A stretch of DNA of 64,000 nucleotides, taken from NCBI GenBank assembly GCA_031459915.1, contig JAVKHO010000008.1:51276-115275 (forward strand), written 5' to 3'. The translations under genes and the position numbers were made by a program. Under the pieces are notes generated by a model that had not been told where the DNA came from, did not search any database, and was given only the letters and a program-made list of their open reading frames with translations. Shown one piece after another: positions 17,701 to 52,188 of the stretch (positions within the stretch are counted from its first letter, which is position 1; each line of letters starts with the position of its first letter). Source of the stretch: Candidatus Tepidifontimicrobium thermophilum. Its GTDB lineage: Bacteria > Sysuimicrobiota > Sysuimicrobiia > Sysuimicrobiales > Sysuimicrobiaceae.

Positions 17701-18690
17701 TCACCAACCGCCTGCCAGCAGGTCCGAGGGGTGAGAGGTGAACCGGCCCATCCGCCGGTACTTATCGTAGCGGCGCCGTAGCCGCTCCTCAGGAGGGACG
17801 GCCTGGACCTCCCGCAGGTGCCGTACCAGCGCCTCGCGCAGGGCCTGGGCGGCGCGTTCCGGGTCCAGGTGGGCGCCCCCTAAGGGCTCCGGGACCACCT
17901 CGTCCACCACGCCGAGCTCCAGGAGGTCCTGCGCGGTGAGTTTGAGGGCTGACGCGGCCTCCTCCTTGCGGGCGGCGTCCCGCCACAGGATGGCGGCGCA
18001 GCCCTCGGGCGGGATCACGGAGTAAATGGCGTACTGCATCATGAGCACCCGGTCTCCGACCCCGATGGCCAGCGCCCCGCCGCTGCCGCCCTCGCCGGTG
18101 ATTGCCACCACCACGGGCGACCGCAGCTGCACCAGGGTCAGGATGCTGCGGGCGATGGCTTCTGCCTGGCCGCGCTCCTCCGCCTCCACGCCCGGGTACG
18201 CCGCGGGAGTGTCCACCAGCGCCACCGCGGGCAACCCCAGTTTGTCCGCCAGGCGCAGGACCCGCGCGGCCTTCCGGTAGCCCTCCGGGTTCGGCATGCC
18301 CCAGCGCCGGTGCACGTTCTCCCGCGTGTCCTTGCCCTTGTGGTGGCCCACCACCACCACCGGCTGGCCGTCCAGGCGCGCGAGCCCGCAGAACATGGCG
18401 GGGTCGTCGCCGAACAGGCGGTCCCCGTGCAGCTCCACCACGTCCGTGAACAGCCTCTGCAGGTAGTCCGCGAGCTTGGGGCGCTGCGGGTGACGGGCGG
18501 CCTGCACCACTTGCCAGGGCGTGGGCTGGCGCCACAGGGCCTCCCGCAGGACCTGCACCCGCTCCCGCAGAGCCTGCAGGCGGGCCTCCAGGTCGGGGAC
18601 GTCGGGACTCGCCGCCTGCAGCTGCGCCAGCTGCTCCTCCAGCTGCTGCAGCTCCCGCTCCTGCTCGCTCCGGTCAGGCGCGGTGGTCAA
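17701..18690 (-). CDS. accA: acetyl-CoA carboxylase carboxyltransferase alpha
   Basis: [24 protein letters not shown] and [10 protein letters not shown]. Confidence 0.96.
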
Positions 18691-19531
18691 CGGTCACCTC
18701 TCCGCCCACGCTCATCAGCCGCAGCAGGCGCGCCACGGTGCGCTTCAGCTCTGACCGGGGCACGATGAGGTCCACGAGCCCGCAGCGCAGGAGGAACTCC
18801 GCGGTCTGGAAGCCCTCGGGGAGCTTCTGCCGGATGGTCTGCTCGATGACGCGGGCGCCCGCGAAGCCGATGAGGGCTCCCGGTTCGGCCACGTGCACGT
18901 CGCCCAGCATCGCGAAGGACGCGGTGACCCCGCCCGTGGTGGGGTCGCACAGAACGGACACGAAGGGCAACCCCGCCGCGTGCAGCCGGCCCACCGAGGC
19001 CACCGTCTTGGCCAGCTGCATGAGGGACAGGACGCCTTCCTGCATCCGGGCTCCGCCACTGGCGCTGCAGGTGACCACGGGAAGCCGGAGCTCCACAGCC
19101 CGCTCGAACGTCCGGGCGACCTTCTCGCCCACCACGGAGCCCATGCTGCCGCCGAGGAACTCGAAGTCCAGCACCGCCACCGCCGCCTCCACACCCTCGA
19201 TGCGGCCGCGGCCGGTGAGCACCGCCTCCCGACGGCCCGTGCGCTGCACCGCCTGACGGTAGCGGTCCGCATACTCCGGGAAGCCCAAAGGGTCTACGGA
19301 GGCGAGCTCCGCGTCCCACTCCTCGAAGGTCCCCTCGTCCACCAGCAGCCGGAGCCGCTCGGGCCCGCTCAGGCGGTGGTGGTAGCCGCACTTGGGACAC
19401 ACCTTCAGGTTGCGTTCCAGCTCCTTGCGGTACACCAGCTGCGCGCACCGGGGACATTTGGCCCACAGTCCCGCGGGGATGTCCCGCCGCTCCACGGACT
19501 CGTACTTGGGACGGCGCAACCAGTTCAACAC
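18674..19531 (-). CDS. accD: acetyl-CoA carboxylase carboxyltransferase beta
   Basis: Zn finger CPRC..CPKC, GGSMGSVVGE, SGGARMQEG and LPEGFQTAEFL. Start estimated. Confidence 0.95.
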   Translation of the reverse strand: MLNWLRRPKYESVERRDIPAGLWAKCPRCAQLVYRKELERNLKVCPKCGYHHRLSGPERLRLLVDEGTFEEWDAELASVDPLGFPEYADRYRQAVQRTGRREAVLTGRGRIEGVEAAVAVLDFEFLGGSMGSVVGEKVARTFERAVELRLPVVTCSASGGARMQEGVLSLMQLAKTVASVGRLHAAGLPFVSVLCDPTTGGVTASFAMLGDVHVAEPGALIGFAGARVIEQTIRQKLPEGFQTAEFLLRCGLVDLIVPRSELKRTVARLLRLMSVGGEVTVDHRA

Positions 19532-38517: not shown

Positions 38518-39819
38518 GTGAGTCCCCGGACATGGTGGGTTCTGGCGGCGGTGGCCGGTGCCGCGGCCGCGTGGGCTTGGGCCGCGGCGGACCGGTGGGC
38601 TGCGGCCTTCGGGTGGCTGGCCTGCGTCGCATTCCTGGTGGCGGGCTGGCGGGAGTGGTCCTGGCGGCGGGCCGTTCGGGCTGTCGCGCAGGGACTCCGC
38701 GACCCGCGCGCCTTGGAGCGGGAGGGGGCTTCTGGCCGGGAGCTGGCCGCGGCGGTGGAGTCCGTGCTGCGGGAGGTGCGGGAGGACCTGCAACGGGCCC
38801 GGGCCCGGGGGAGCCACCTCCGGGAGCTGGTGGAGGCGCTCCCGTGGGGTCTCGTGGAGCTGGACCACCGGCGGCGGGCGGTGTGGGTGAACCGTCCCGC
38901 GGCGGCCCTGCTGGGCGTCCAGCGCGAGCAGGCGGCGGACACGTCCGCGGTGGCGCTCTTTCGACGCCACGAGGTGGACGAACTACTGGACCGTGCAGAG
39001 CGGGCCGGCGAGGCGGTGCGGGACCTGGAGCTGGGCGGCGTGCTGCAGGTGGTGGCCCGTCGGCTGGCCTCAGGCGGGTTCTTGCTCCTGGTGCAGGACG
39101 TGACCCAGGATCGTCGGGCGGAGGCGGTGCGGCGCGACTTCGTGGCCAACGTCTCCCACGAGCTGCGCACCCCCCTTGCGTCGGTGCGGGCCATGGCGGA
39201 GGCGCTGCGGGACGGCGCACTGGAAGACCCACAGCTGGCGGCCCGGTTCCTCGCTCAGATGCTCCAGGAGGTGGACCGTATGAGCCGGCTGGTGAACGAC
39301 CTGCTGGACCTGTCCGCCCTGGAGGCCGGGGTGGTGCGCCTGCGGTGGGAGGACCTCGAGGCGGAGGAACTGCTGGAGGCGGTGGCGCGGCGGTACGCGG
39401 CCGCAGCCGAGCGGAAGGGAGTGGCCCTGGTGGTCCAGCCCGGAAAGGCGCGGGTCCGGGGCGACCGGGATCGGCTGGAGCAGGCCCTTGGGAACCTGGT
39501 GGACAACGCGGTCAAGTACACACCGTCTGGCGGCCAGGTGGTGCTCAAGGTAGAGCTACGCGACGGGGAGGTGTCTCTGGTGGCGGAGGACACGGGCCCA
39601 GGGATCCCTCCAGAGCACCTCCCCCGGGTGTTCGAGCGCTTCTACCGCGCCGACCCTTCCCGCAGCCGGGCGGAGGGAGGGACAGGGCTGGGGCTGGCCA
39701 TCACCAAGCACATCGCCCTGGCTCACGGGGGCCGGGTGGAGGCGGCCAACCGCCCGACCGGCGGCGCCCGGCTGGCGGTGGTCCTGCCTGCGGCCGGCGG
39801 CGGAACGCGGGAACGGTAG
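38518..39819 (+). CDS. PhoR-like PAS sensor histidine kinase
   Basis: RRDFVANVSHELRTPL H-box, NLVDNAVKY, and G-boxes. Confidence 0.93.
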   Translation: MSPRTWWVLAAVAGAAAAWAWAAADRWAAAFGWLACVAFLVAGWREWSWRRAVRAVAQGLRDPRALEREGASGRELAAAVESVLREVREDLQRARARGSHLRELVEALPWGLVELDHRRRAVWVNRPAAALLGVQREQAADTSAVALFRRHEVDELLDRAERAGEAVRDLELGGVLQVVARRLASGGFLLLVQDVTQDRRAEAVRRDFVANVSHELRTPLASVRAMAEALRDGALEDPQLAARFLAQMLQEVDRMSRLVNDLLDLSALEAGVVRLRWEDLEAEELLEAVARRYAAAAERKGVALVVQPGKARVRGDRDRLEQALGNLVDNAVKYTPSGGQVVLKVELRDGEVSLVAEDTGPGIPPEHLPRVFERFYRADPSRSRAEGGTGLGLAITKHIALAHGGRVEAANRPTGGARLAVVLPAAGGGTRER

Positions 39820-39824
39820 CCGGC

Positions 39825-41441
39825 TCAGCCAGACCGCGCACCCACGCCCGATACGGCACCAGTCCCGAAGACCCGCTGGTAGACGTCCTCCGCGTGGCTG
39901 GTGGGTAGCGGCTCCGCCTCCACCATGCGGTACGTGCGCCGGCCCTGGGCGTCCCGCTCCGCCCGCAGGAACAGCACGGAGCCGGATCGCCGGGCGCGGA
40001 AGCGATCCGCCAGTTCGAAGAAGTGAGTAACGAAGAACACGCGGACCCCCGCTTCCGTCAACGCGTCCAGAACCTGGCAGGCGATCTCCGACCCCTCGCG
40101 CTCGTGGGTGGCGGAGAAGGACTCGTTGCACAGGAACACCGAGCGCGCGGTGGCGAGGTCCACGAGGGTTCGCATGCGACGGAGTTCCTCCACGAACTTG
40201 CCGGACTCCAGGCGCGGGTCCTCCTCCCGCTTGAAGTGGGTCAGCACCCCGTCACAGACGCTTACGGCGAAGGACTGGGCGGGCACGAACAGGCCCGCCT
40301 GCGCCATCAGCCAGGCGATCCCCACGCTCCGGAGGAAGGTGGTCTTGCCCCCGGAGTTGGGCCCGGTGATCAGGACGAGGCGCTTGCCGTTCGCCTCGAG
40401 GTCGTTGGGGACGACAGTTCGGTCGGTTGCCAGGGCCAGCACGGGGTCGTAGAGGCCTCGGGCGGAAAGGTTGTAGCCTGCGGGATGCACGGAGGGCAGG
40501 CAGGTGGGGAATCCGCGCCGGCGAAGCTGAGTGTGCAGCCGCAGACCGCCCACGTAGAAGGCGAGTTCGGCGCGCAGGCAGGAGAAGAAGTCCCGGACGT
40601 GGTCGGCGGCCTGGCCCACGGCCGTGGCTGCTGAGGCCAGAGCCCGGTCCCGCAGGGCCTCCAGGGCCTTGACACCCGCCTCATCGCGAGGAGACAGCTC
40701 GAAGGTGTAGGCATCCTGGCCCCGACGGAACCACGCCTTCCACCGCTCCAGCCAGCTCCGGGGGCCCTCCGGAGGCGGGTGCAGGAGGAGGTCGGTGGGC
40801 TTGTTGGCAGGCCCAAGACGCGCGCTCCAAAGGTGGCCGTGTGGTAGCCTCAGAGCGTCCAGGTGGTGTTGCATCTCACCGAGATAGGAGTCCTCCAGGT
40901 CACGGTGCAGCGCTGCGAACAAGCGCCTCCAGCCCTCGCTGTGGAAGCGAGGCGCGTGGCGATCCGCGGCGGACTTCAGCCGGCGGAGGGAGCCCAGCAG
41001 CGCCGCGAGAGTCCCGACGGACTCGCGCAGCACCCAGTCGGGGTAGCGGGCGAGGACGCCCAGATACCGGCCTTTGAGTTTGTCTGCGGCCTCCAGACTG
41101 ACCCCATACAGCTCCAGAACAGCGTCCGGGTTGTCCAGACAGTCTGCCAGTACGGCCTGTCGGTGGGCCACCACAGCAGGGTCTGCGGACGTGCCCTCCA
41201 GCAGGAGCCTCCGGCTGACCTCGAAGACCAGGTCGTCCTCCCCGGCCATGGCCTCCAGGAGGGGTAACAGCCCCAGGTCCTGGACTAGGTCGTCCACGTT
41301 TGGGGGAAGTCCCGCGGAAGGATCGAAGCCTGGGGGAGGGGCAGTGTGGTGGCCGGCCCGCAGGCCCGCTCGGACCGTGGCGGCCTGCAGGGCCCAGCGC
41401 CAGTCGAAATCCCGGTCGGGGTACAGTAGGCGCGGGGTCAT
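39825..41441 (-). CDS. MutS-domain-V ATPase lacking the mismatch-binding domain (MutS4-like subunit B)
   Basis: ITGPNSGGKTT, THFKREE, NESFSAT and VTHF. About 540 aa with no N-terminal domain I. Confidence 0.85.
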   Translation of the reverse strand: MTPRLLYPDRDFDWRWALQAATVRAGLRAGHHTAPPPGFDPSAGLPPNVDDLVQDLGLLPLLEAMAGEDDLVFEVSRRLLLEGTSADPAVVAHRQAVLADCLDNPDAVLELYGVSLEAADKLKGRYLGVLARYPDWVLRESVGTLAALLGSLRRLKSAADRHAPRFHSEGWRRLFAALHRDLEDSYLGEMQHHLDALRLPHGHLWSARLGPANKPTDLLLHPPPEGPRSWLERWKAWFRRGQDAYTFELSPRDEAGVKALEALRDRALASAATAVGQAADHVRDFFSCLRAELAFYVGGLRLHTQLRRRGFPTCLPSVHPAGYNLSARGLYDPVLALATDRTVVPNDLEANGKRLVLITGPNSGGKTTFLRSVGIAWLMAQAGLFVPAQSFAVSVCDGVLTHFKREEDPRLESGKFVEELRRMRTLVDLATARSVFLCNESFSATHEREGSEIACQVLDALTEAGVRVFFVTHFFELADRFRARRSGSVLFLRAERDAQGRRTYRMVEAEPLPTSHAEDVYQRVFGTGAVSGVGARSG

Positions 41442-42970
41442 GGGACGAAGCGCTGGCGGACGTCGTGGTACGTGAGTCGGTACCTCTGGGCCAGGGCCTC
41501 CGCGTACGCGCGCCCGTCCGCTGGACGACGCAGCACGCGGAAGGTGCGCCCTTCGGGCTGGCCTGGCGGCACCGTGGCTACCAGGCTCACGGTCTTCTCG
41601 TTCAGGGAAGCCAGCTCATCGAGGAACGTCACCCACACGCACAGGCCGCCAATCTCCAAGAGCCGGCCCAGCAGCCGTCGGCTCAGGGTGCGGGCGTCGC
41701 GGAGGGCGGTGGAGGAGAGGATCTCGTTGACGATCACCACACTTTTGGGGGTCGCAACCTGGAGGATCTCACGGATCCTCAGAAGGTCGTCTTCCAGTTT
41801 GCCGTGCAGGTCCAGCGTGTACTCTCCGCGGGGAAAGTGGGTGAGGACGTGGTCCGGCACCGGAAGGGCGGCCTGCCGGCCAGGGACCGGGCAACCGAGC
41901 GAAGCCAGGTAGAAGACCTGACCCACCGCGCGGGCGAAGGTAGTCTTTCCGCCCTGGTTGGGACCGGTGACCACCAGGGCCCGCTCCGGAGAACGGAAGA
42001 GGAAGTCGTTGAGGACCGGCACCCGGCCGTGCGCCACCAGCTTCGCGGCCAGTGCGAGGTCGAAGCAGCCCTGGGCGAAGGCTTCTGAATTGTCCGCGCG
42101 CAGGGTGGGCAAGCAGAAGGGCAGGCCTGCCGCCTCGAGGGGAGCGAGGAAGTCTAGGTAGCCCAGGTAGAACTGGGCCTCCCGGTCGAAGGCGTCGATC
42201 CAACGTGCCGGCAGTCCCCCGCACGTTCTCCGGAAGTCCGCCACCCGAAAGAACAGGTCCGGGTTCAGGCGGGAAACCCCTTCCAGGATCTGCGCTTCCA
42301 CGTGGTTCAGCTCCGCGGAGTGCCGGAACTCGAAGGCGTACGGGGTGCCGTGGGCCTGTCGGAAACGCTCGAAGGTGGACCGCACCACTTCCGCGTAGTC
42401 GGGCTCCCCCCGGTAGGGGCGGACGGTGACCCTCAGGCCCTGGACGAGCACCGCAAAGCGCAGGGACGATAGCTCCGCCTGCAGGCTCTCGGCGGCCTCC
42501 GCGAGGCTGCGGAATGCGGGGGAAGCGGCGTACGCGGCCAGCAGGTCGCGGAAGCGCACGAGCCCACGGCTGTGGAGCGGACAGGAGGACAGGCCCTCCA
42601 ACAGCGCGAGGACTGCCTGCACGTAGAGGTGGGCCGCGTCAAGGAACCAGCGGTCTTTCTCCAGCGTGGAGTATGCCTTGTCCGCACGGCGCAGGTGGGC
42701 CCGCACCGCGCGGAGGGCCGAAGCGAAGGCACGGACCGCGTCCGACACTCGGGGCTCCCGGAAATCGCGGAAGACCTCCTGGCGGAAGGAGACCGTGTCG
42801 CTGTCCCGCAGCGGGGTGTAGAAGACGGGTTCCAGGCCGTACTCCCCCCGGTCCGCCACGATGGCCTCCACCACCCGGTCCAGCTCTAAGTCCCGCAGGC
42901 ATGCGGGCGGTCGTTCCCGGAGCGCCGGAGGTTGGCCTGAAGGAAAAAGGAGGCTCGAAACCTCGTCCAT
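41438..42970 (-). CDS. MutS-domain-V ATPase lacking the mismatch-binding domain (MutS4-like subunit A)
   Basis: VTGPNQGGKTT, THFPRGE and NEILSST. Overlapping stop/start with its partner. Confidence 0.85.
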   Translation of the reverse strand: MDEVSSLLFPSGQPPALRERPPACLRDLELDRVVEAIVADRGEYGLEPVFYTPLRDSDTVSFRQEVFRDFREPRVSDAVRAFASALRAVRAHLRRADKAYSTLEKDRWFLDAAHLYVQAVLALLEGLSSCPLHSRGLVRFRDLLAAYAASPAFRSLAEAAESLQAELSSLRFAVLVQGLRVTVRPYRGEPDYAEVVRSTFERFRQAHGTPYAFEFRHSAELNHVEAQILEGVSRLNPDLFFRVADFRRTCGGLPARWIDAFDREAQFYLGYLDFLAPLEAAGLPFCLPTLRADNSEAFAQGCFDLALAAKLVAHGRVPVLNDFLFRSPERALVVTGPNQGGKTTFARAVGQVFYLASLGCPVPGRQAALPVPDHVLTHFPRGEYTLDLHGKLEDDLLRIREILQVATPKSVVIVNEILSSTALRDARTLSRRLLGRLLEIGGLCVWVTFLDELASLNEKTVSLVATVPPGQPEGRTFRVLRRPADGRAYAEALAQRYRLTYHDVRQRFVP

Positions 42971-43392
42971 CAGTGGACCACCATCACGGGGCAGTGGGCG
43001 TACCGGAGCACGCGCTCGGAGACCGAGCCCAGCATCCAGCGCTGCACAGGCGTGAGCCCGCGTCGGCCCAGGACGATGAGGTCGAAGGCTTCTTCACGGG
43101 CCACCCGTACCAGGACCTCTGCGGGGTGGCCCACCTCGGTGCGCAGGGTCACCGGAACCCCCGCCTTGCGGGCCTGGTCCCGGGCCCAGCGGAAGGCCTC
43201 CGCCAACGGTCCACGGGACTGAGCCACGGCTGCGTCCACCTCGCCCTGCAGCTCCGCGAACTCCGGCGGACGCACTACCGCCAGCGCGACCACGTCCGCG
43301 CGGTACCGGCTGGCCAGGTCCAGAGCGGCCAGCAGCGCCTTTCGGGCTGCCGGGGATCCGTCGTAGCCGACCAGTACGCGCCGGAACATCAT
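42970..43392 (-). CDS. universal stress protein
   Basis: VLVGYDGS, GHPAE and DLIVLGRRG..LGSVSERV. Confidence 0.95.
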   Translation of the reverse strand: MMFRRVLVGYDGSPAARKALLAALDLASRYRADVVALAVVRPPEFAELQGEVDAAVAQSRGPLAEAFRWARDQARKAGVPVTLRTEVGHPAEVLVRVAREEAFDLIVLGRRGLTPVQRWMLGSVSERVLRYAHCPVMVVH

Positions 43393-44576
43393 TCACCTCC
43401 GGGGGCCAGGGCCAGCTCGGGAGCCGCCTGCTGCACGTGGTGGGCGGGAAGGAAGAAGCGGTTGGCGATCCAGGTGGGCACCACCGCGCTGGCCACGACC
43501 GCGCTCACGAGGAAGGAGTACTGCGCCTGGTCGATGATGCCGTGGGTGAGGCCGTACAGGGAGGAAATGGTCCCGAAGGTGAGCCCGGTGGACATCAGCA
43601 GGGTCGTGTACATGGCCTCGTCCCGCGCGTACCGGTACGCCCGGGTCAACGGGAACACGCCGGCAAACTTGCTCAGGGCTTTGGCCGCGAAGAGCACCGC
43701 GAACGTCCCCAGACCGCCCGCCACGACGGGGAGCTGGACCAGCAGCCCCGCGCGGATGAAGTAGAAGGGGGTGAGCAGCCCGAAGGTGAGGCTGCGCAGG
43801 CGTCGGACCAGTTCGTGGTGGCGGCCCACGGTCCCCGCCAGGGCCATTCCCAACACGTACGCGGGGAGGACCGCTTCGGACCCGGACCACGCCGCCAGGG
43901 CGCCCAGGGCGAACAGCACCCCCAGGAGGAATTTCACTTCCAGCTCAGAGGTCCGGCCAGCGAAGCGGCGCAGCACGGGCCGGGCGGCGCGGGCGCAACC
44001 CCATAGGGCGACCCCGAGAGCTGCGACGAACACTACGGTGCGCCAGCTGAAGGGAGCGAACAGGAGCCCCAGAGCCACCACCGTCCCCAGGTCGTTGATG
44101 AAGCACGCTGCGAGGATGACCTTGCCGTACTCGGTGCGGTTGATCCCCAGTTCCAGGAGCACCGCGTACACGACCGCCACGGAGGTGGTGGACAGGGCGA
44201 CCCCTGCGACCCAGCTGGCCTGGGGAGCCCACCCCAGGACCTGCCGGGCGGCCCACGCGGCGCCCAAAAAGGGAGCCAGGAAGCCGGCCAGACCCATCAC
44301 CGTGGCCTCCTTCCAGCGCCTGCGGAAGGCGTCTGGGTCGAGCTCGGCTCCCGCGAGGAAGGTGAGGACCACCGATCCGGTACCCGCGAGGAAAGCCACC
44401 CAGCCATCCCGGACTCCGGGCAACGAGGTGTGGCCGAAAACCCCCATGAGCAGCTGGCTCAAGATTCCGACGAGGATCTCGGTGAGGGCTACGGAGACCC
44501 GCAGCCAGCTTCCCAGAAGGGCGGCGAGCAGGGCGAGGGCCAGCCACGCTGCCGCGGTCCACCAGATGGTTTCCAT
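43389..44576 (-). CDS. cation:proton antiporter (CPA2/Na+-H+ exchanger family)
   Basis: About 12 TM segments, with FLAGAE, STTSVAVV, NDLGTV and TPFYF motifs. Confidence 0.88.
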   Translation of the reverse strand: METIWWTAAAWLALALLAALLGSWLRVSVALTEILVGILSQLLMGVFGHTSLPGVRDGWVAFLAGTGSVVLTFLAGAELDPDAFRRRWKEATVMGLAGFLAPFLGAAWAARQVLGWAPQASWVAGVALSTTSVAVVYAVLLELGINRTEYGKVILAACFINDLGTVVALGLLFAPFSWRTVVFVAALGVALWGCARAARPVLRRFAGRTSELEVKFLLGVLFALGALAAWSGSEAVLPAYVLGMALAGTVGRHHELVRRLRSLTFGLLTPFYFIRAGLLVQLPVVAGGLGTFAVLFAAKALSKFAGVFPLTRAYRYARDEAMYTTLLMSTGLTFGTISSLYGLTHGIIDQAQYSFLVSAVVASAVVPTWIANRFFLPAHHVQQAAPELALAPGGE

Positions 44577-44605
44577 GGAGTCGACCTCCGGCGGGGTAGA
44601 GGCCG

Positions 44606-44641
44606 AAAAAGATTGGCCCCTACCCGACTTGGGTAGGAGCC
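44606..44641 (-). terminator. intrinsic terminator of fluoride riboswitch 1
   Basis: Minus-strand hairpin GGCTCCTACCC-aagtc-GGGTAGGGGCC followed by AATCTTTTT. The 5' arm is the aptamer 3' end. Confidence 0.8.
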
Positions 44642-44683
44642 ATCAGCCTCCGTGGGAGGCGGTTCGGGCGGGCTCCATCGCCC
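44633..44683 (-). ncRNA. fluoride riboswitch (crcB motif) 1
   Basis: GGGCG-AU-GGAGCC-CGCCC-GAACC-GCCUCC-CAC-GGAGGC-UGAU-GGCUCC-UAC, showing P1, pseudoknot, hairpin and the conserved GAUG/UGAU/CUAC. Confidence 0.93.
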
Positions 44684-44689
44684 GCGGGC

Positions 44690-44719
44690 ATTATCCGGCA
44701 AGCTCCCCGCGGCCGTCAA
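44690..44719 (-). promoter_or_regulatory. sigma70 promoter of the riboswitch-1 operon (TTGACG-18-GATAAT)
   Basis: -35 at 44714-44719, -10 at 44690-44695, aptamer begins 6 nt downstream. Confidence 0.7.
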
Positions 44720-44751
44720 TGCCATCCGGGCTCGCCGGGAGCGTGCCCGCC

Positions 44752-45945
44752 TCATCGTGGTCGTAGGGGGGACCGTGCAGCGGACCAGCCGAACAACACG
44801 GCGGCGGACAGCTGCGCGCCGACCGCGAACAGAACCAGGTAGCGCGGGTGCACGTCGTACAGGAATCCCATCAGGCCGCTGCCCGCGAACCAGGCCACAC
44901 CGTATACCGTCTGGAACAGCCCGAAGGCGGAGGCCCGGCGTTCCTGGGCCACCATGCGGGCCACCGCCGCGCGCAGCACCGACTCCTGCAGGCCCACTCC
45001 CATCCCCCACAGGGCGACCCCGACCCAGGCGCCCGCAGGCCCTCCGAAAATGGCAAGAGGCGCGAACAAGGCGGTCACCGCGGTCCCCGCAGCGAGGGTC
45101 ATGGTACCGTACCGGTCGAACCAACGTCCCAGGAGCAGAGCCGCACCCGCATCCGTGGCCATAGCGAGCGCATACAGCATGGGCACGACGGCCGTCGGGA
45201 GGACGGCGGTGCGGGCGAAGTGGTACGCCAGCAGCGGGAAGTCCGCGAAACCCGCCGCCACCAGTCCGACACCGATCAGGTAGAGGCCCAGTACGCGGCG
45301 CAGCTGGAAGTCCACGGGAACCGAACTGTCCTCCAGCTGGGACGGTTGCGGGAACCGGGTGCGGGTCCAGGCGATCGTCACCAGGCAAAGGGCCGCCGGA
45401 AACGCCAGGGCCGCGAAACCCCACCGCAGGCTGCCGCCGGCAGAGAGGACCGCGGCGACCAGCAACGGACCGGCTACAGCTCCCACTTGGTCCAGGGCCT
45501 CGTGCAGGCCGAAGGCCCAGCCGGCACCTACCCGGCTTGCCGCGTACGACAGCATGGCGTCCCGGGGTGGCGTCCGTACGGCCTTGCCCGCGCGCTCAGC
45601 CACCACCAGTAGCGCAGCAGCCTCCCACCGGCCCACCAGGGCGAGGAGCGGGACGGACAGGAGGTTGGCCACGTAGCCTGCGACGGTGAGGTCCCAGAAG
45701 CGGCGGGTTCGGTCAGCCAGTCGGCCGGACACCAGGCGCAGTCCGTAGCCCACCAGCTCCCCGAACCCGGCCACGAAACCGACTACGGTGGCGGAAGCAC
45801 CTAGGGCGAGCAGATAAGGGCCGAGGATGCTGCGGGCGCCCTCGTAGGTGGCGTCCGCCAGGAGGCTGACGACGCCCATCAGTACTACGAAGCGGGTCGC
45901 TTCCCGGGCGGGGTCCTGCCGGATGCCGAGTGTCGGGGTCTTCAT
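44752..45945 (-). CDS. MFS transporter
   Basis: About 12 TM segments, with VSLLAD.TYEG, SGRLADRT, ERAGKAVRTPPRD and G.W.DR.G. Confidence 0.9.
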   Translation of the reverse strand: MKTPTLGIRQDPAREATRFVVLMGVVSLLADATYEGARSILGPYLLALGASATVVGFVAGFGELVGYGLRLVSGRLADRTRRFWDLTVAGYVANLLSVPLLALVGRWEAAALLVVAERAGKAVRTPPRDAMLSYAASRVGAGWAFGLHEALDQVGAVAGPLLVAAVLSAGGSLRWGFAALAFPAALCLVTIAWTRTRFPQPSQLEDSSVPVDFQLRRVLGLYLIGVGLVAAGFADFPLLAYHFARTAVLPTAVVPMLYALAMATDAGAALLLGRWFDRYGTMTLAAGTAVTALFAPLAIFGGPAGAWVGVALWGMGVGLQESVLRAAVARMVAQERRASAFGLFQTVYGVAWFAGSGLMGFLYDVHPRYLVLFAVGAQLSAAVLFGWSAARSPLRPR

Positions 45946-46706
45946 GGTCGGGTGGGCGACCGGATGGGTCGCGGCCGCACGTCCGGGGCGGCCCTGATCT
46001 CGTTGGGGTCGCGGCCGGCCAACACCTCCAGGGCCCGCGTCCAGCTGACACCCTGCTCCAGGGTGAGTCCCTCATGCCGGAAGCGGTAGTCGTGCTTGCG
46101 GACAAGCTCGGAGAGGTCAGCCTCCAGCCGCGCCAGGGCTTGCCGTTGGTCCTCCAGGAGGCGCTTGAGCTGTTCTGCAGACTTGGCCAGGGAGGCGGCG
46201 AGAACCAGGTGGTGCAGACACAGGGGCGCCGGACCCGCAAGGGCCTGCCGCACGTGAGGGTCCGCAGAGTGCTCCAGTAGGCTTGCCACGTACACCTCCT
46301 CCATACGCTGACGGTGCAGGCAGGCAGGGCACGGGGCAACGGGGCCCAGGAGGAGGTGGAGGGCAGACTCCGCAGCCCGTCGGCGTCCGGGCCGACTCCG
46401 GAGCGCGGCATCCAGTCGGTCCCGCAGGGCTCCCACGAGGTCCCGGTACACGATGGCGACCCCCAGGACTGGGTTGCGCTGCGCCGGCAGCGCCCACGCG
46501 TGCTCTGGGCAGAACCCCCAACTGGCCCGCAGCTCGTCGCGCATTTCAGGGTCGTTCACGCGCTCGTACAGGAAGTTGTCCAGGAACCGCTGGACCGCGT
46601 GGGTGACGAGGCGGCAGACGGGACATCCGCCAGACGCCAGGGCCTCCCGTACCCTGGCGAAGACCAGGTCGTCCCGCCGCGCGCCGCCGTGGGCGTCACC
46701 ACGCAC
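45942..46706 (-). CDS. tandem CxxC/CxxH putative zinc-binding protein (DUF6062-like)
   Basis: CPVC..YE.VND, GFCPEH, CPAC, LCLHH and RKHDYRF. Start estimated at GTG 46706. Confidence 0.75.
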
Positions 46707-47559
46707 GGCGCACGCTCCGCAGGAACCGTCCGATCCAGCTCCGGATGGGCTGCCCTTTTCCCGCATGCGGCGCCGGCGGGGAGGGAACCCGCGCGTCCGG
46801 AGGTGCAGGGGCAAGTCCGCCCGGCCGCCTTCCCCACTCGGCCAGGGATCGGCGGGCCTGTTCCACGGAGGCCTCCAGGCCCACCAGGTTCATGCGCAGC
46901 CCGCGCACGGCTTCGTCCGCCAGGTACGCGCGGTGCCGCAGGGTCGCAAGCTCGGCCCGTGCGGCCCCGAGGGCCCGCAGCGCGTCGTCCGGCGCAGGCC
47001 ACAGGTGTACCGCCGCGCCGTAACCGAGGAGGATCCGCAGGCCTTCTGGCTCGGTCCAACCCTCCGTCCGCAGGACGCCGTCCACCGCCTGGGCTGCCTC
47101 CTCGTCCAGGGAAACGTGCACCGTGGCCAGGACGTCGTGTTCGCCCGCGGGCGTAAGCTGCCCTTTTCCAAGCCCTTTTTCCGGCGGCCCGGACGGTGCC
47201 CCCTGCTGGCTCCGCAGGGCGAACAGATCCCGGCGCAGCCGCGTGTACTCCACGCTGAGGCTAGCCACCTGTTCACGGAGGATGTCCCGCTCCCTCTCGC
47301 GAGCCAGGGTCCGGGCGCGCATGGACAGCGCGTGCGCAAGGGCTTCCCGGCGCTGCAGCTCGAGCCGCACGCCGTCCCGATCGGGCGCCCTGGACGCGGC
47401 CAGTTCCTCCCACGTCCTCTGGTCGGCTGCGTACCGGCGCGCGCCCTCGGCGACAAGCCACGCGAGGCCGACCTCGAGGGGCCAGAAACCAAGGGAGGAC
47501 AGGCCCTCCGCCAGCTGCGCCAGGTCCTCGCCAGACAGGGTCAGAATCAGGTCCCGCAT
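46696..47559 (-). CDS. hypothetical coiled-coil protein with internal duplication
   Basis: First ATG directly after the riboswitch-2 terminator. Two similar halves. Overlaps the next start. Confidence 0.7.
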
Positions 47560-47566
47560 CCCGAAC

Positions 47567-47598
47567 AAAAAGCTCCTACTGGCAACCCAGTAGGAGCT
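47567..47598 (-). terminator. intrinsic terminator of fluoride riboswitch 2
   Basis: Perfect 12-bp hairpin AGCTCCTACTGG-gttg-CCAGTAGGAGCT plus a T-run. Overlaps the aptamer 3' end. Confidence 0.9.
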
Positions 47599-47642
47599 AT
47601 CAACCCGGCGAACCGGGTACACAAGGGCGAGCCCCATCGCCC
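47590..47642 (-). ncRNA. fluoride riboswitch (crcB motif) 2
   Basis: GGGCG-AU-GGGGCU-CGCCC-UUGUGU-ACCCGG-UUCG-CCGGGU-UGAU-AGCUCC-UAC. Same fold as copy 1 with compensatory changes. Confidence 0.92.
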
Positions 47643-47650
47643 GCACGTCC

Positions 47651-47679
47651 AAGATAAGGGGGCCGACGACCCTCGTCAA
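47651..47679 (-). promoter_or_regulatory. sigma70 promoter of the riboswitch-2 operon (TTGACG-17-TATCTT)
   Basis: -35 at 47674-47679 and -10 at 47651-47656. Confidence 0.7.
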
Positions 47680-47724: not shown

Positions 47725-47756
47725 TTGACCTTCCAGGGTCGTGGAAGGTTTACCGT
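47725..47756 (+). promoter_or_regulatory. MerR-family metal-responsive promoter with ACCTTCCA-N6-TGGAAGGT dyad
   Basis: TTGACC-20 bp-TACCGT. The elongated spacer holds a perfect 8-bp inverted repeat resembling CueR-type boxes. Confidence 0.88.
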
Positions 47757-47778: not shown

Positions 47779-50007
47779 GTGACTTGGAGCCCGCAGCGGC
47801 TGCACCTCAAGCTGGGTGGGATGCACTGCTCCCTCTGTGTGGAGTCCGTGCGCAAGGCGGTCCTGCGGCTCCCCGGGGTACGGTCCGTGCACGTGTCCAT
47901 CGCGCACGAGGAGGCCCTGGTGGAGTACGAGCCGGACCGCCTGTCCGCCGAGGCCATCTCCAGGGCGCTGGAGGACATCGGGTTCCGCGTGCGCCCCCCG
48001 GACGAGGCTATCCGGGTCCAGGAGGAAGAGACCGAGCTGCGCCGGGCTCGCGGTCTGGCGTGGTGGGCCGGCGTCCTGCTCGGGCTGGCGAGCGTCCTGA
48101 TGGTAGCCAGCGCCCTCTGGGGTCCGAGCCGGCCGCGGGCCCTCGCTATGGGCGGCCTGGCCGTGTTCGCGGCTGTGGGCCCCGGCCGCTGGGTGTTGCG
48201 CAACGCCTGGCAGTCCCTCCGCCGGGGCATTCTGAACCAGGACGTGCTGGCCGCCGCATCCGCCCTCGCGGGCGTGGCGGGAGGGACCGTGGGCTTGGTA
48301 CTTCCGGGTTTCCCTCCCGGGGAGTTCTTCGGGGCTGCGGTGTTCGTCTTCGCCTTCCACATCGTCGGCGGCTACCTGTCGGTCGCGGTGCACGTGCGGG
48401 CGTCGCAGTCCGTGCGCCGGCTCCTGAGCCTGGCGCCGTCTACCGCGTGGCGGCTGTTGCCCGACGGTTCCGAGGAGGAGGTCCCCGCGAGCAACCTGCG
48501 GCCTGGAGACCGGGTACGGGTCCGCCCGGGCGAGCGCGTTCCCGCGGACGGGGTGGTGGTGCAGGGTGCTTCGGCGGTGGACGAGAGCCTGCTGACCGGG
48601 GAACCCATGCCGGTAGACAAGTCTGCGGGCGACGAGGTGGTGGGTGGGTCGCTGAACCAGCTGGGGAGCCTCGTGGTGGAGGTGACCCGGGTCGGTCCGG
48701 ACAGCTTCCTCCAGGCGGTGGCGCGGCACGTGGCGGAGGCCCGGGCCCTCAAGCCGGGGGTGCTGCGGCTGGTGGATTGGGTCCTCCTGTGGTTCGTGCC
48801 GGTCGTCTTCGCTGCCGGAGCTGCGGGATTCCTCGCTTGGACGCTTGGTGGAATGCTGGTCGTGGGCCGACCCGACTGGGCGCGGGCGGCCTTCGCGGCC
48901 TTGAGCGCGCTCGTGATGGGCTACCCCTGCGCCCTGGGGATGGCGACGCCGCTCGCCATCGTCCGGGCTTCCGGCGAGGCGGCCCGACGCGGGATCCTCA
49001 TGCGGTCCGGGGAAGCCTTCCAGCTTCTGGGTCGAGTGGACACCTTCGTGCTGGACAAGACCGGCACCGTGACGGAGGGCAGGCCCCGTCTGGCGGCCTG
49101 CAGGACCCTCGGGATGGCGGAGGAGGAGCTCCTGCGGCTGGCCGCCGGAGCCGAGAGCCCATCTGAGCACCCCTTGGCCAGGGCGGTGGTGGAGGGTGCC
49201 GCGACGCGAGGAATCGGCGTGCCTGGTGCTGCGGACTTCGGGGCTCACCCGGGTCAGGGCATCGAGGCCCGGGTGGACGGGCGATGGGTCCTAGCCGGCA
49301 GCGCTAGGTTCCTGCGCGAACGCGGGGTGGACACAGCACCGCTTGCATCCGTCGCGCGAGAGCTACAAGGCCGGGGCCAGACCACGGTCCTGGTAGCCGT
49401 GGACGGGCGCCCCGCTGGTGTTTTGGGCATCGAAGACCCGCTCAAGCGCGACGCGGCGGAAACGGTGCGTGAGCTGCGGGGCAGAGATTGCCGGGTCGTC
49501 CTCCTGACGGGCGACGACCGGCGCACCGCCCAGGCCGTGGCGCAGGAGGCCTGCATCGAGGAGGTCCTGAGTGAGGTCCTGCCGGGGCAGAAGGCGGAGG
49601 TGGTCCGGGCGCTGCAGGCACAGGGACGGCGCGTGGCCATGGTGGGAGACGGGATCAACGACGCGCCGGCCCTCATGCAGGCGGACGTGGGGGTGGCGAT
49701 GGGCGCGGGCGCCGACATCGCAGTGGACTCCGCGGACGTGGTGCTGGTGAGCGGACGCCTGGGCGCCCTGGTGGACGCGGTGGAGCTGGCCCGCCGCAGC
49801 TACGGCCTGACCGTGGGCAACGTGGCCGTAGCTCTGGCGTTCAACGGAGTGGGGGTTGTGGCGGCCACCAGCGGGTTGGTCAGGCCGGTGTGGGCCATGC
49901 TGGCGATGGCGGTGAGTGTGGGGCTCGTCTTGGCCAGGTCTTTGGTGGGCCGCCTGGGGCGGGTGCGGGAGCGCCAACTCGCAGGAGGTGCTCCGCTGCA
50001 GGAATAA
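47779..50007 (+). CDS. heavy-metal translocating P1B-type ATPase (atypical YPC motif)
   Basis: HMA GMHCSLC, TGE, YPCALG, DKTGT, SEHP and GDGINDAP. Confidence 0.93.
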
Positions 50008-50042
50008 GGAATATGGGAGACAGGGCGCCAGGAGGTGAACCC

Positions 50043-50498
50043 GTGCGCGGACGGGTGAGCGAGAAGGTCGGAGCCCGGATCGGCGAGCTGGCTCGCGGGT
50101 TCGGCCTCAACCCGAGGACCCTGCGGTACTACGAGTCGGTGGGCCTGCTGCGGCCGCGGAGGACGGCCTCCGGATACCGGGTGTACGATGACCGGGACCG
50201 GGACCGGTTGCGGTTCGTCCTGCGGGCAAAGCGGGCGGGGCTGACGCTGCGGGAGATGGCAGAGATCCTGACGCTGTGGGATCGCGGGGAGGCGCCGTGC
50301 GGGTACGTGCGAGGCTGGCTGGAGCGGAGGCTGCGGGAGGTGGAGGCCCAGCTGAGAGCCCTGCGAGTGTTGCGGCAGGAGCTGGGGCGGCTGCGCCGCC
50401 GGGCGGCCCGACGTCCCCGCGGGGAGCCTCCCTGCGTGTGCCCGATCCTCGAGGAGGCTCGCGACGGTTCGGGCCCGTCTGCGTGGCGGGCCGGGTGA
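50043..50498 (+). CDS. MerR-family heavy-metal-responsive regulator
   Basis: RIGELA..TLRYYE, GYRVY, and Cys in APCGY and PPCVCPIL. GGAGGT SD. Confidence 0.92.
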   Translation: MRGRVSEKVGARIGELARGFGLNPRTLRYYESVGLLRPRRTASGYRVYDDRDRDRLRFVLRAKRAGLTLREMAEILTLWDRGEAPCGYVRGWLERRLREVEAQLRALRVLRQELGRLRRRAARRPRGEPPCVCPILEEARDGSGPSAWRAG

Positions 50499-51134: not shown

Positions 51135-51370
51135 TCAGTTGCCGGGAAGCCGTCGCACGCCTGTGGGCGTACCTGGACCGCAACCTGGGGCGTTTGCAGG
51201 AACGAGAACTGGAGGAGCACCTGGGGTTGTGCCGGCACTGCTGCGGGGAGCTGGAGTTCGCGCGTCACGTGCGGGCGCTCCTGCAGCGGCCGGGCGTAGC
51301 TGTGGAGCTGCCCGCAGACACCCGGGCGAAGCTGGAGGACTTCATCCGTCAGTTGGGAGGGGGGGCATGA
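51131..51370 (+). CDS. zf-HC2 zinc-binding anti-sigma factor
   Basis: MISC..LWAYLD and EEHLGLCRHCC (HxxxCxxC). Overlaps the sigma stop. Confidence 0.88.
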   Translation: MISCREAVARLWAYLDRNLGRLQERELEEHLGLCRHCCGELEFARHVRALLQRPGVAVELPADTRAKLEDFIRQLGGGA

Positions 51371-52188
51371 GGGAGCACGCGCACGCGGGCGCACAACCGT
51401 CCGAGGACCTATTGGGCCAGGAGACGATCAAGGAGTTGGTACGCGAGGCTTACCGGGCGGTGGTCGGGACGACCACGGGCGTGGCCGGGAGGCTGTACGA
51501 CCCGGAGCAGCTGGCCCGGCTGCCCCGCGGCGCCGTCGAGCAGGCTCTGGGGGTGGGCAACCCCGTGCGCGCCGCCGGCCTGCAGCCAGGAGAGGTGGTC
51601 CTGGACCTGGGGTGCGGTGGGGGCATCGACACCACCCTGGCGGCCCATGCGGTGGCGCCCGGCGGCAGAAGCATCGGCCTGGACATGCTGCCGGAGATGC
51701 TGGAGGTGGCGGCGCGCCACGCCGCGGAGGCCGGCGTGGCCAACGTCGAGTGGATGCTGGGGGAGATGGAGGCCATCCCGCTGCCCGAGGCGAGCGTGGA
51801 CGTGGTGCTCAGCAACGGGGTGATCAACCTCTCGCCCCGCAAGTCCCGGGCCTTCGCGGAGATCTACCGGGTCCTGCGGCCGGGCGGCCGCATGGTGGTG
51901 GCGGACATTGTGGTGGACGAGGACCTCCCCCCGGAGATCCTAACGAGCGCCGCTGCCTGGGCCGGTTGACTCTCGGGCGCTTTGGCGGAGCGTGTCTTCG
52001 CCAGCAAAGTGCAGAAGGTCGGGTTTGTGGACATCCAGCGGGGAGAGGAGTTGCCCTTCGGGGTGGACGAGTGCGAGCAGTACCCGCTGTTCACGCCGGA
52101 GCTGATTGCCCTGATGCGCCGGCTCATTCCGCCGGAACGGCAGGCGACGGTGGCCCGGTCGGTGATCTTCACGGCCCGTAAGCCGTAG
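51367..52188 (+). CDS. ArsM-like SAM methyltransferase, probable selenoprotein (UGA 51967-51969 = Sec)
   Basis: VLDLGCGGG and SNGVINL. In-frame TGA in WAG-U-LSGAL aligns to the Cys of WSA-C-VAGAV in arsM. The frame continues to TAG 52186-52188, and a SECIS-like hairpin follows the TGA. Confidence 0.8.
51977..52012 (+). promoter_or_regulatory. bacterial SECIS-like stem-loop
   Basis: GCGCUUU-GGCGGAG-cgugu-CUUCGCC-(agc)-AAAGUGC. The apical loop starts 21 nt after UGA and has GU at loop positions 2-3. Confidence 0.7.

Follow-up and report, generated by a model that had tools for sequence, protein, structure and literature searches.

A riboswitch-led locus that reads as a fluoride-ON regulon, with a distinct CPA2 antiporter, in a genome without detected Fluc or CLC exporters

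The subject here is a locus at positions 39825..47679, on the minus strand, of a 64,000-nucleotide (nt) stretch of contig JAVKHO010000008.1 (GCA_031459915.1) from Candidatus Tepidifontimicrobium thermophilum. That whole stretch is called the window, and its positions are used below. In the locus, two fluoride riboswitches (RS1 and RS2) head seven genes, and the best reading of its sequence is that it constitutes a modular fluoride-ON regulon in a genome without the exporters Fluc (CrcB) or CLC. The first gene behind RS2 encodes a CPA2-type antiporter that belongs to a clade of its own. We propose, with a probability of about one half, that this antiporter, once induced, is a cation/H+ exchanger that cuts the weak-acid trapping of fluoride rather than pumping it. 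Links between fluoride riboswitches and genes of these kinds are already published; the mechanism by which the genes would act is the new proposal.

Two riboswitches with an ON-switch layout

Riboswitches of the crcB class are ON switches that work by terminator exclusion. An initial annotation of the window, made from the sequence alone, described two complete aptamers of this class and suggested an Rfam search of both. For RS2, that search gave a covariance-model match to RF01734 at 54 bits (E 3.6e-12), against a gathering score of 34; this is the sole Rfam RNA match at gathering level in the window. RS1 matched the same model at 28 bits (E 7.7e-5), below the cut-off, because the AACCGC linker before its second hairpin is replaced; its first stem, its pseudoknot and its UGAU.CUCCUAC end are kept. 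RS1 is accepted as real despite its low score because, in 15 relatives, the orthologous gene has a riboswitch-model match immediately before it. Some orthologous copies score 34-48 bits. The possibility that RS1 is a chance or decayed riboswitch was rejected on its position and pairing in relatives. RS1 is likely a variant fluoride riboswitch that works as the canonical ones do. Genome-wide, RS1 and RS2 were the only riboswitch matches.

Between the two pseudoknots, as had been noted, one pair differs on both sides (C-G to U-A) and another on one side only (A-U to G-U). Covariation is also seen in 31 aligned copies, which are kin and were chosen by the Rfam model or a regular expression. Here, all cells of the 6-base-pair (bp) pseudoknot are paired (100%), and 3/6 pairs are changed on both sides; in slid control alignments, 47-61% of cells are paired. 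Taken together with the first stem, 99.7% of cells are paired and five pairs have double changes, a result reached by 0/500 shuffles.

The remaining elements of the switch were also recovered as first described. A TTGACG promoter precedes each aptamer, two sites being found where shuffles give 0.1 +/- 0.3. Both terminators are 12 bp long, and the 5' arm of each is the 3' end of the aptamer, the strand that forms the pseudoknot; this is the ON layout described in PMC2864571. In RS1, the 3' arm of the terminator contains AGGAG, 13 nt before the start of the first gene, so this terminator may have a second, translational role. The terminator scan between the third gene and RS2 gave none besides that of RS2 itself, so transcripts from RS1 may also feed RS2.

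Short contigs from RNA runs X12, X17 and X20 cover parts of the locus, although contigs are no evidence of transcription, strand or termination. The runs that hold near-identical DNA are mostly hot-spring metagenomes. The G+C content of the locus (0.70) equals that of the genome (0.71), giving no sign of recent transfer.

Known exporters in the genome and the phylum

The absence of Fluc/CrcB and CLC-F genes from the window, which had been noted together with the suggestion of a genome-wide search, extends to all 33 contigs of the assembly (2.6 Mb, 96.25% complete). Neither PF02537 (Fluc) nor PF00654 (CLC) had a match anywhere in it, while control genomes gave PF02537 in 11/14 and PF00654 in 12/14. 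A tblastn search of the assembly with Fluc proteins from three relatives found no Fluc, and a scan of it for Fluc and CLC motifs found nothing, CLCs with GREGT/V and GEVTP being absent. The possibility of an exporter elsewhere in this assembly was rejected on these results.

Genomes of this phylum typically lack a known exporter: only 6/73 have Fluc. Close homologs are labelled Armatimonadota by their sources. The CLCs of relatives (in 8/40 and 5/36 genomes) carry GREGP rather than CLC-F motifs; no CLC of the phylum sample carried the latter, and two CLC loci (L246, L247) matched no motif. The CLC-F pattern is insensitive (3/57 genomes, against 5 control matches).

A separate antiporter clade

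The antiporter has the fold of NapA, the CPA2 Na+/H+ antiporter of T. thermophilus (TM 0.79 to 5bz2), and shares with it the TS at the unwound helix, the Asp at motif position 7 and the Lys at position 8. It is, however, only 23% identical to NapA. The paired acidic residues, DD, have become ND or TD; RGE has become GLT; and a further Lys is invariant. In a quick tree, a single long branch sets 47 members of the clade apart from 6 paralogs, with support 100.

The ion site defines this clade sharply. D162, K299, K303 and T330-G-L-T333 are invariant in 45/45 sequences, and position 161 (motif position 6) is Asn in 36 and Thr in 9 of them. Compared with NapA, the core has lost D156, R331 and E333 and has gained the invariant second Lys (K299) and several Thr and Ser, which gives it, by count, a net charge of +1 against -1. 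The second Lys and TGLT occur in 0/7 aligned paralogs from relatives.

Rules that connect such motifs to electrogenicity and ion type have been proposed (PMC6181914). The features of a CPA2 protein are all found here: the NhaA/NapA fold, the invariant, essential Asp at position 7, Lys at position 8, a non-polar residue at position 4 and no Glu at position 5. The Asp at position 6 that marks the electrogenic NapA/NhaA type is absent. By the rules given in that source, the antiporter reads as an electroneutral, Na+-type CPA2.

Members of the clade were collected from 63 loci in Acidobacteriota, Proteobacteria, Myxococcota, Spirochaetota and Chloroflexota; these relatives are 51-92% identical, many being kin. 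In 42/63 loci, a riboswitch is found upstream of the antiporter at a distance of at most 350 nt, and in 51/63 one lies somewhere in the locus, as judged by a model built from this lineage, which is less sensitive than Rfam for some variants. A universal stress protein (USP) gene is present in 46/63, and Fluc lies within 8 kb in 30/63. The order riboswitch (59 bits)-CPA-USP-MutS-MutS is found again, abutting crcB and gpmA, on a plasmid of Enterobacter ludwigii. The antiporter is present in 38 plasmid records and the MutS gene in 47, mostly enterobacterial. Elsewhere, the parts of the locus shuffle freely among relatives. Of the neighbourhood conservation that the initial annotation proposed to test, the link between riboswitch and antiporter is seen across phyla, and the gene order recurs in E. 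ludwigii; a fixed unit is not supported.

How the antiporter might protect, and whether it exports

Fluoride enters cells as HF and accumulates about tenfold for each unit of pH difference across the membrane. Fluc, in turn, is driven by the membrane potential. These two facts suggest how an exchanger might confer tolerance. Fluoride binding to RS1 and RS2 would likely block the terminators and turn the seven genes on. The antiporter, likely an electroneutral cation/H+ exchanger, would then shrink the pH gradient, and the smaller gradient would limit weak-acid trapping. Downhill exchange (H+ in, Na+ out) would turn the pH gradient into membrane potential, which would help on its own and also help Fluc. 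The USP likely regulates the antiporter. In yeast, fluoride adaptation has been linked to lower internal pH (PMC11139923).

Such a helper should be found both with and without Fluc, and it is. Fluc is also present in 34/50 genomes of the antiporter clade (68%), a count that covers 50 of the 63 loci. By comparison, the redundant exporters Fluc and CLC-F occur together in only about 3% of genomes (PMC11139923, section 11); the antiporter would therefore be non-redundant with Fluc. Cation/H+ exchange also accounts for the Asp that the clade has kept.

Among the 73 genomes of the phylum sample, the antiporter (19/19), the MFS transporter of the locus (23/23) and Fluc (6/6) occur only within 34 genomes that carry a strong riboswitch, defined as E at most 1e-10, a threshold set after viewing. 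These 34 comprise 18 with the antiporter only, 5 with Fluc only, 1 with both and 10 with neither (one-sided p 0.046, a value that treats kin as independent). A genome with a split antiporter gene (G076) was counted here as positive, and one Fluc genome (G103) is unpublished. In the family, the corresponding numbers are 5, 4, 1 and 2 (p 0.12). Over all 73 genomes, Fluc is not depleted where the antiporter is present (p 0.50). Of the 10 genomes with neither, 7 have the MFS gene, and one (G125) has an antiporter fragment behind a riboswitch. In other phyla, 14/48 antiporter genomes, of completeness not given, have neither Fluc nor the CLC-F pattern.

These data bear on an alternative that we hold possible, though distinctly less probable than the exchanger: that the CPA2 clade itself exports fluoride, by F-/H+ antiport or cation-coupled efflux, acting on its own in our genome and boosting Fluc in others. 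Stated in full, and just as tentatively, the riboswitch-led clade might be a third prokaryotic class of fluoride exporter, in which the extra Lys and the loss of acidic residues have adapted the cation/proton antiporter fold to carry anions. It might then be the main defence of a phylum nearly without Fluc and CLC-F, and travel with the USP and a rewired MutS4 ATPase as a mobile cassette that has reached enterobacterial plasmids. Near-exclusion with Fluc, both among riboswitch-bearing phylum genomes and within the family, would be expected of an exporter, as would those antiporter genomes of other phyla that have neither Fluc nor a CLC-F-type motif, and the placing of the antiporter as first gene behind the riboswitch in two thirds of its loci (42/63). 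The genome has a second CPA gene for housekeeping. The core, which lacks D156, R331 and E333, carries K299 and the Thr and Ser in 45/45 clade members and 0/7 paralogs, and is by count more positive than that of NapA, makes anion transport possible; other NhaA-fold proteins do carry anions. An exporter sits less well with the 68% co-occurrence with Fluc, with the invariance of the cation-site Asp and with the absence of Fluc depletion over the whole phylum sample, and the geometry of the side chains is unreadable from the antiporter model.

That the MFS protein is the missing exporter, with the antiporter merely supporting it, seems improbable. Its gene is present in 23/73 phylum genomes, all 23 riboswitch-bearing (23 of the 34), including the 7/10 without Fluc and antiporter mentioned above, and on an Alicyclobacillus plasmid it is directly riboswitch-led. 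However, it is also present in 5/6 Fluc genomes, adjoining Fluc in three, and on a Nostoc plasmid a 51% homolog without a riboswitch is placed among metal genes.

Several points weigh against cation/H+ exchange as the function of the antiporter, or against the locus as a stand-in for an exporter. The near-exclusion in riboswitch-bearing phylum genomes (p 0.046) suits redundancy with Fluc better. The ion site departs from those of NapA-like and Kef-like paralogs, so the motif rules of PMC6181914 may not apply to it. The review PMC11139923 reads the antiporters as counteracting acidification, which is the opposite direction. In one relative (G056), what lies between RS2 and MutS4A is a USP gene reduced to its last 20 codons, and Fluc is found elsewhere in the genome. 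As many as 39/73 phylum genomes have no strong riboswitch, antiporter, MFS gene or Fluc, which counts against simple replacement. A 96%-complete assembly could, of course, miss an exporter.

Thus, the initial proposal of a dedicated fluoride-tolerance module of about 8 kb using other machinery survives in part. The fluoride-ON regulon without Fluc or CLC is there, and its families are riboswitch-linked across phyla. A fixed unit that replaces an exporter is not supported, given that the parts shuffle and that the antiporter and Fluc share 34/50 genomes.

The MutS4A/B pair

The two ATPases at the end of the locus fit MutS4A and MutS4B, whose hallmark is an adjacent pair with the stop codon of A overlapping the start codon of B (PMC2190696). 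Here, the junction is ATGA. Pfam recognises only MutS_V (PF00488) in either protein, with no mismatch-binding, clamp or Smr domain detected, and both score far under the NCBIfam cut-offs for MutS1 and MutS2. In these respects, the pair resembles the MutS4 proteins of PMC2190696 and PMC5742357: adjacent paralogs, stop/start overlap, only the ATPase domain recognised. It differs from them in the fluoride link, which those papers do not draw, and apparently in its active-site changes. The assignment uses domain content, the junction and an indirect link via an island in M. branderi.

The ATP site itself is rewired. Walker B reads NE, its Asp replaced by Asn, in 66/66 MutS4A homologs (N415) and 81/82 MutS4B homologs (N439). 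The His of the H-loop is Phe (F449) in 66/66 MutS4A and is kept (H473) in 82/82 MutS4B, and the STF signature reads GK[LF]. In the same genome, MutS and MutS2 have the canonical form, keeping DE and THY. PADLOC gave a weak P-loop match and nothing else.

Where the locus leaves room to judge (50 of 80 metagenome loci), a riboswitch lies at most 350 nt upstream of MutS4A in 26/50 and at any upstream distance, in the same direction, in 42/50. An island described in M. yongonense carries MutS4 with an enolase and a hydrogenlyase-like complex; the main text of its description (PMC5742357) does not mention fluoride. A similar island on the M. branderi plasmid NZ_AP022607.1 has four fluoride riboswitches, one of them 32 nt before the MutS4A gene. 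Riboswitch-led loci such as these suggest that MutS4 is likely a fluoride-response ATPase, and MutS4A/B would likely be an asymmetric heterodimer that acts on fluoride-stalled targets rather than in mismatch repair.

It is unlikely, in our view, that the pair is instead a recombination or repair factor against fluoride-linked DNA damage, within an operon for general stress response. The MutS-family ATPase domain is present, of course, and linked genes are called DNA repair in PMC2864571. There is also one experimental hint of a DNA role: in M. smegmatis, MutS4A/B of M. yongonense increased the number of recombinants, with 55 vs 22 colonies (PMC5742357, section 9). That effect is modest, in a main text silent on fluoride. 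The lack of any detected mismatch-binding, clamp or Smr domain, and the rewiring of Walker B, signature and H-loop beside a MutS and MutS2 that keep DE and THY, argue against repair, which would also leave the transporters unexplained.

Two of the plasmid and island neighbourhoods may be described further. That of M. branderi (L240:12808-21422) holds enolase and hydrogenlyase-like genes, USP, DUF190, an MFS gene of the type found in our locus and the MutS4 pair; one of its riboswitches precedes PE/PPE genes. On the Alicyclobacillus plasmid NZ_CP066785.1, from acid mine drainage (L241:6292-16734), four riboswitches lead the MutS4 pair, the MFS gene, a sigma factor and a hydrogenlyase-like gene.

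The genes behind RS1

The first gene behind RS1 (ORF1) had been called a coiled-coil protein. The gene is present; it proves to be a 287-aa fusion of two paralogous genes that starts at ATG 47559. Its halves are separate genes in every relative examined except one (L134). They are related by hhalign (94%, E 1.4e-7), while plain BLAST between them gave no link and a Pfam search assigned the protein to no family. The AlphaFold model (pLDDT 84.6) has strands at 2-9 and 144-151, forming two beta-alpha-alpha units with their strands paired and a long helix after each. Its best informative structural match is 9f0x_E, presumably TraY (VIA Z 9.6, root-mean-square deviation 3.6, 103 aligned); single-chain Arc, 1u9p, gives VIA Z 6.2. 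Foldseek with the model gave nothing at E 0.001, Pfam matches to ribbon-helix-helix (RHH) families are weak, and Atlas gives 0.80-0.81. DARPin and coiled-coil matches of the halves were set aside as low-information.

From the model, ORF1 is likely a single-chain tandem RHH protein. In the model, it has in common with the Arc fusion and 9f0x chain E the two beta-alpha-alpha units per chain and the paired strands; it differs in the long coiled coil of each unit and in being a two-gene pair in most relatives. Such a protein would likely bind DNA and add a second regulatory layer. No operator-like repeat was found for it at either promoter.

The second gene, first called a CxxC protein, is indeed present and is identified as DUF6062 (PF19538). 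Its motifs CPVC, CPEH, CPAC and CLHH predict two metal sites, and its homologs are riboswitch-led in two further loci (L135, L198). DUF6062 and the MFS protein likely serve ion or metal balance.

All seven co-directional genes that were first listed were found as open reading frames. Their coordinates, with those of the regulatory elements, are collected in Table 1.

Table 1. Features of the locus (window coordinates)
Feature	Position	Strand	Basis
RS1 promoter, sigma-70-type, TTGACG-17-TATCTT	47651..47679	-	consensus match only
RS1, probable variant fluoride riboswitch aptamer	47584..47650	-	RF01734 28 bits; position in 15 relatives; pseudoknot pairing
RS1 intrinsic terminator, overlaps aptamer 3' end	47566..47598	-	terminator scan
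ORF1, 287 aa, two-paralog in-frame fusion, predicted tandem RHH	46696..47559	-	hhalign, AlphaFold, structure comparison
DUF6062 protein, start uncertain	45942..46706	-	PF19538 E 3e-15; Atlas 0.97
MFS transporter, 397 aa	44752..45945	-	PF07690
RS2 promoter, sigma-70-type, TTGACG-18-GATAAT	44690..44719	-	consensus match
RS2, canonical fluoride riboswitch aptamer	44627..44691	-	RF01734 54 bits, E 3.6e-12
RS2 intrinsic terminator, overlaps aptamer 3' end	44604..44642	-	terminator scan; fold z -4.3
CPA2-type antiporter, 395 aa, distinct riboswitch-led clade	43389..44576	-	PF00999; NapA fold; quick tree
USP, overlaps antiporter stop	42970..43392	-	PF00582
MutS4A-type ATPase, 510 aa	41438..42970	-	PF00488 only
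MutS4B-type ATPase, 538 aa	39825..41441	-	PF00488 only; ATGA overlap with MutS4A

Neighbouring genes and other observations

Downstream, a PAS sensor kinase gene (38518-39819, plus strand) converges on MutS4B, the two ending 5 nt apart; no terminator-like site was found between them. Upstream, and divergent from RS1, a heavy-metal P-type ATPase gene is followed by a MerR-like regulator gene (47784-50498, plus strand), and the promoter of the former contains a perfect inverted repeat, ACCTTCCA-6-TGGAAGGT (47728-47749). We take these two genes to be a CueR-type copper module. Further on, the frame of an ArsM-like methyltransferase (51367-52188, plus strand) reads through one in-frame TGA (AWAG*LSGAL). 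Its homologs have Cys at that position, and the genome encodes SelA (E 8e-143); the methyltransferase is likely a selenoprotein.

ChrA (chromate-transporter) family genes occur elsewhere in the genome (G000:C32:30344-31420 and C29:36535-37568), not beside a riboswitch match. In three relatives (G119, G122, G123; L248:10545-12990, L250:5921-8305, L251:3703-4764 and 17921-18916), a MoxR-like AAA gene and a gene for a hydrogenlyase-like membrane subunit stand behind additional riboswitches, these families being assigned by eye from the translations.

Relation to known fluoride systems

The initial annotation had remarked that riboswitch links to antiporters and MutS genes were known, and they are indeed in print. 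Genes for mutS and ion transport are listed behind the crcB motif in PMC2864571, and only exporters are found behind fluoride riboswitches more often than Na+/H+ antiporters (PMC11139923). Our locus shares with the RF01734 regulons already described the aptamer, the pseudoknot, the overlapping terminator and gene classes listed before. It differs in belonging to a genome without Fluc or CLC-F, in having a sub-threshold variant as RS1, and in its RHH pair and DUF6062, which the published gene lists do not name in the portions available to us.

The fluoride operon of Enterobacter cloacae FRM (PMC5533749) is likewise a riboswitch-led multi-gene island with a USP. Its crcB-gpmA-ATPase end is present on the E. 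ludwigii plasmid, next to the CPA-USP-MutS-MutS cassette. As described in FRM, however, the operon works via crcB and an extra enolase, pyrophosphatase and mutase, none of which is in our locus. Deletion of crcB in that strain did not abolish fluoride resistance (PMC5533749). A plasmid Kef-type gene, crcB and mutS are mentioned in PMC6317114 without being connected. Judging by titles, abstracts and passages, with subscription papers and supplements outside the scope, nothing was found in the literature that tests this antiporter or connects MutS4 with fluoride.

What the antiporter clade may mean

The antiporters behind fluoride riboswitches have so far been explained by assumption alone. In our genome, where no known exporter was found, and in a phylum that nearly lacks them, these antiporters form a single, sharply delimited clade marked by an ion-site signature of its own. 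A defined clade turns the old question into single-gene tests, for which mesophilic orthologs exist, such as the antiporter of a Caulobacter sp. S6 plasmid. Either outcome would be useful: a further class of exporter, or tolerance of fluoride by way of the pH gradient, with relevance to engineering cells that degrade fluorinated compounds. MutS4, filed as a DNA-repair gene, would be recast as a likely fluoride-response ATPase.

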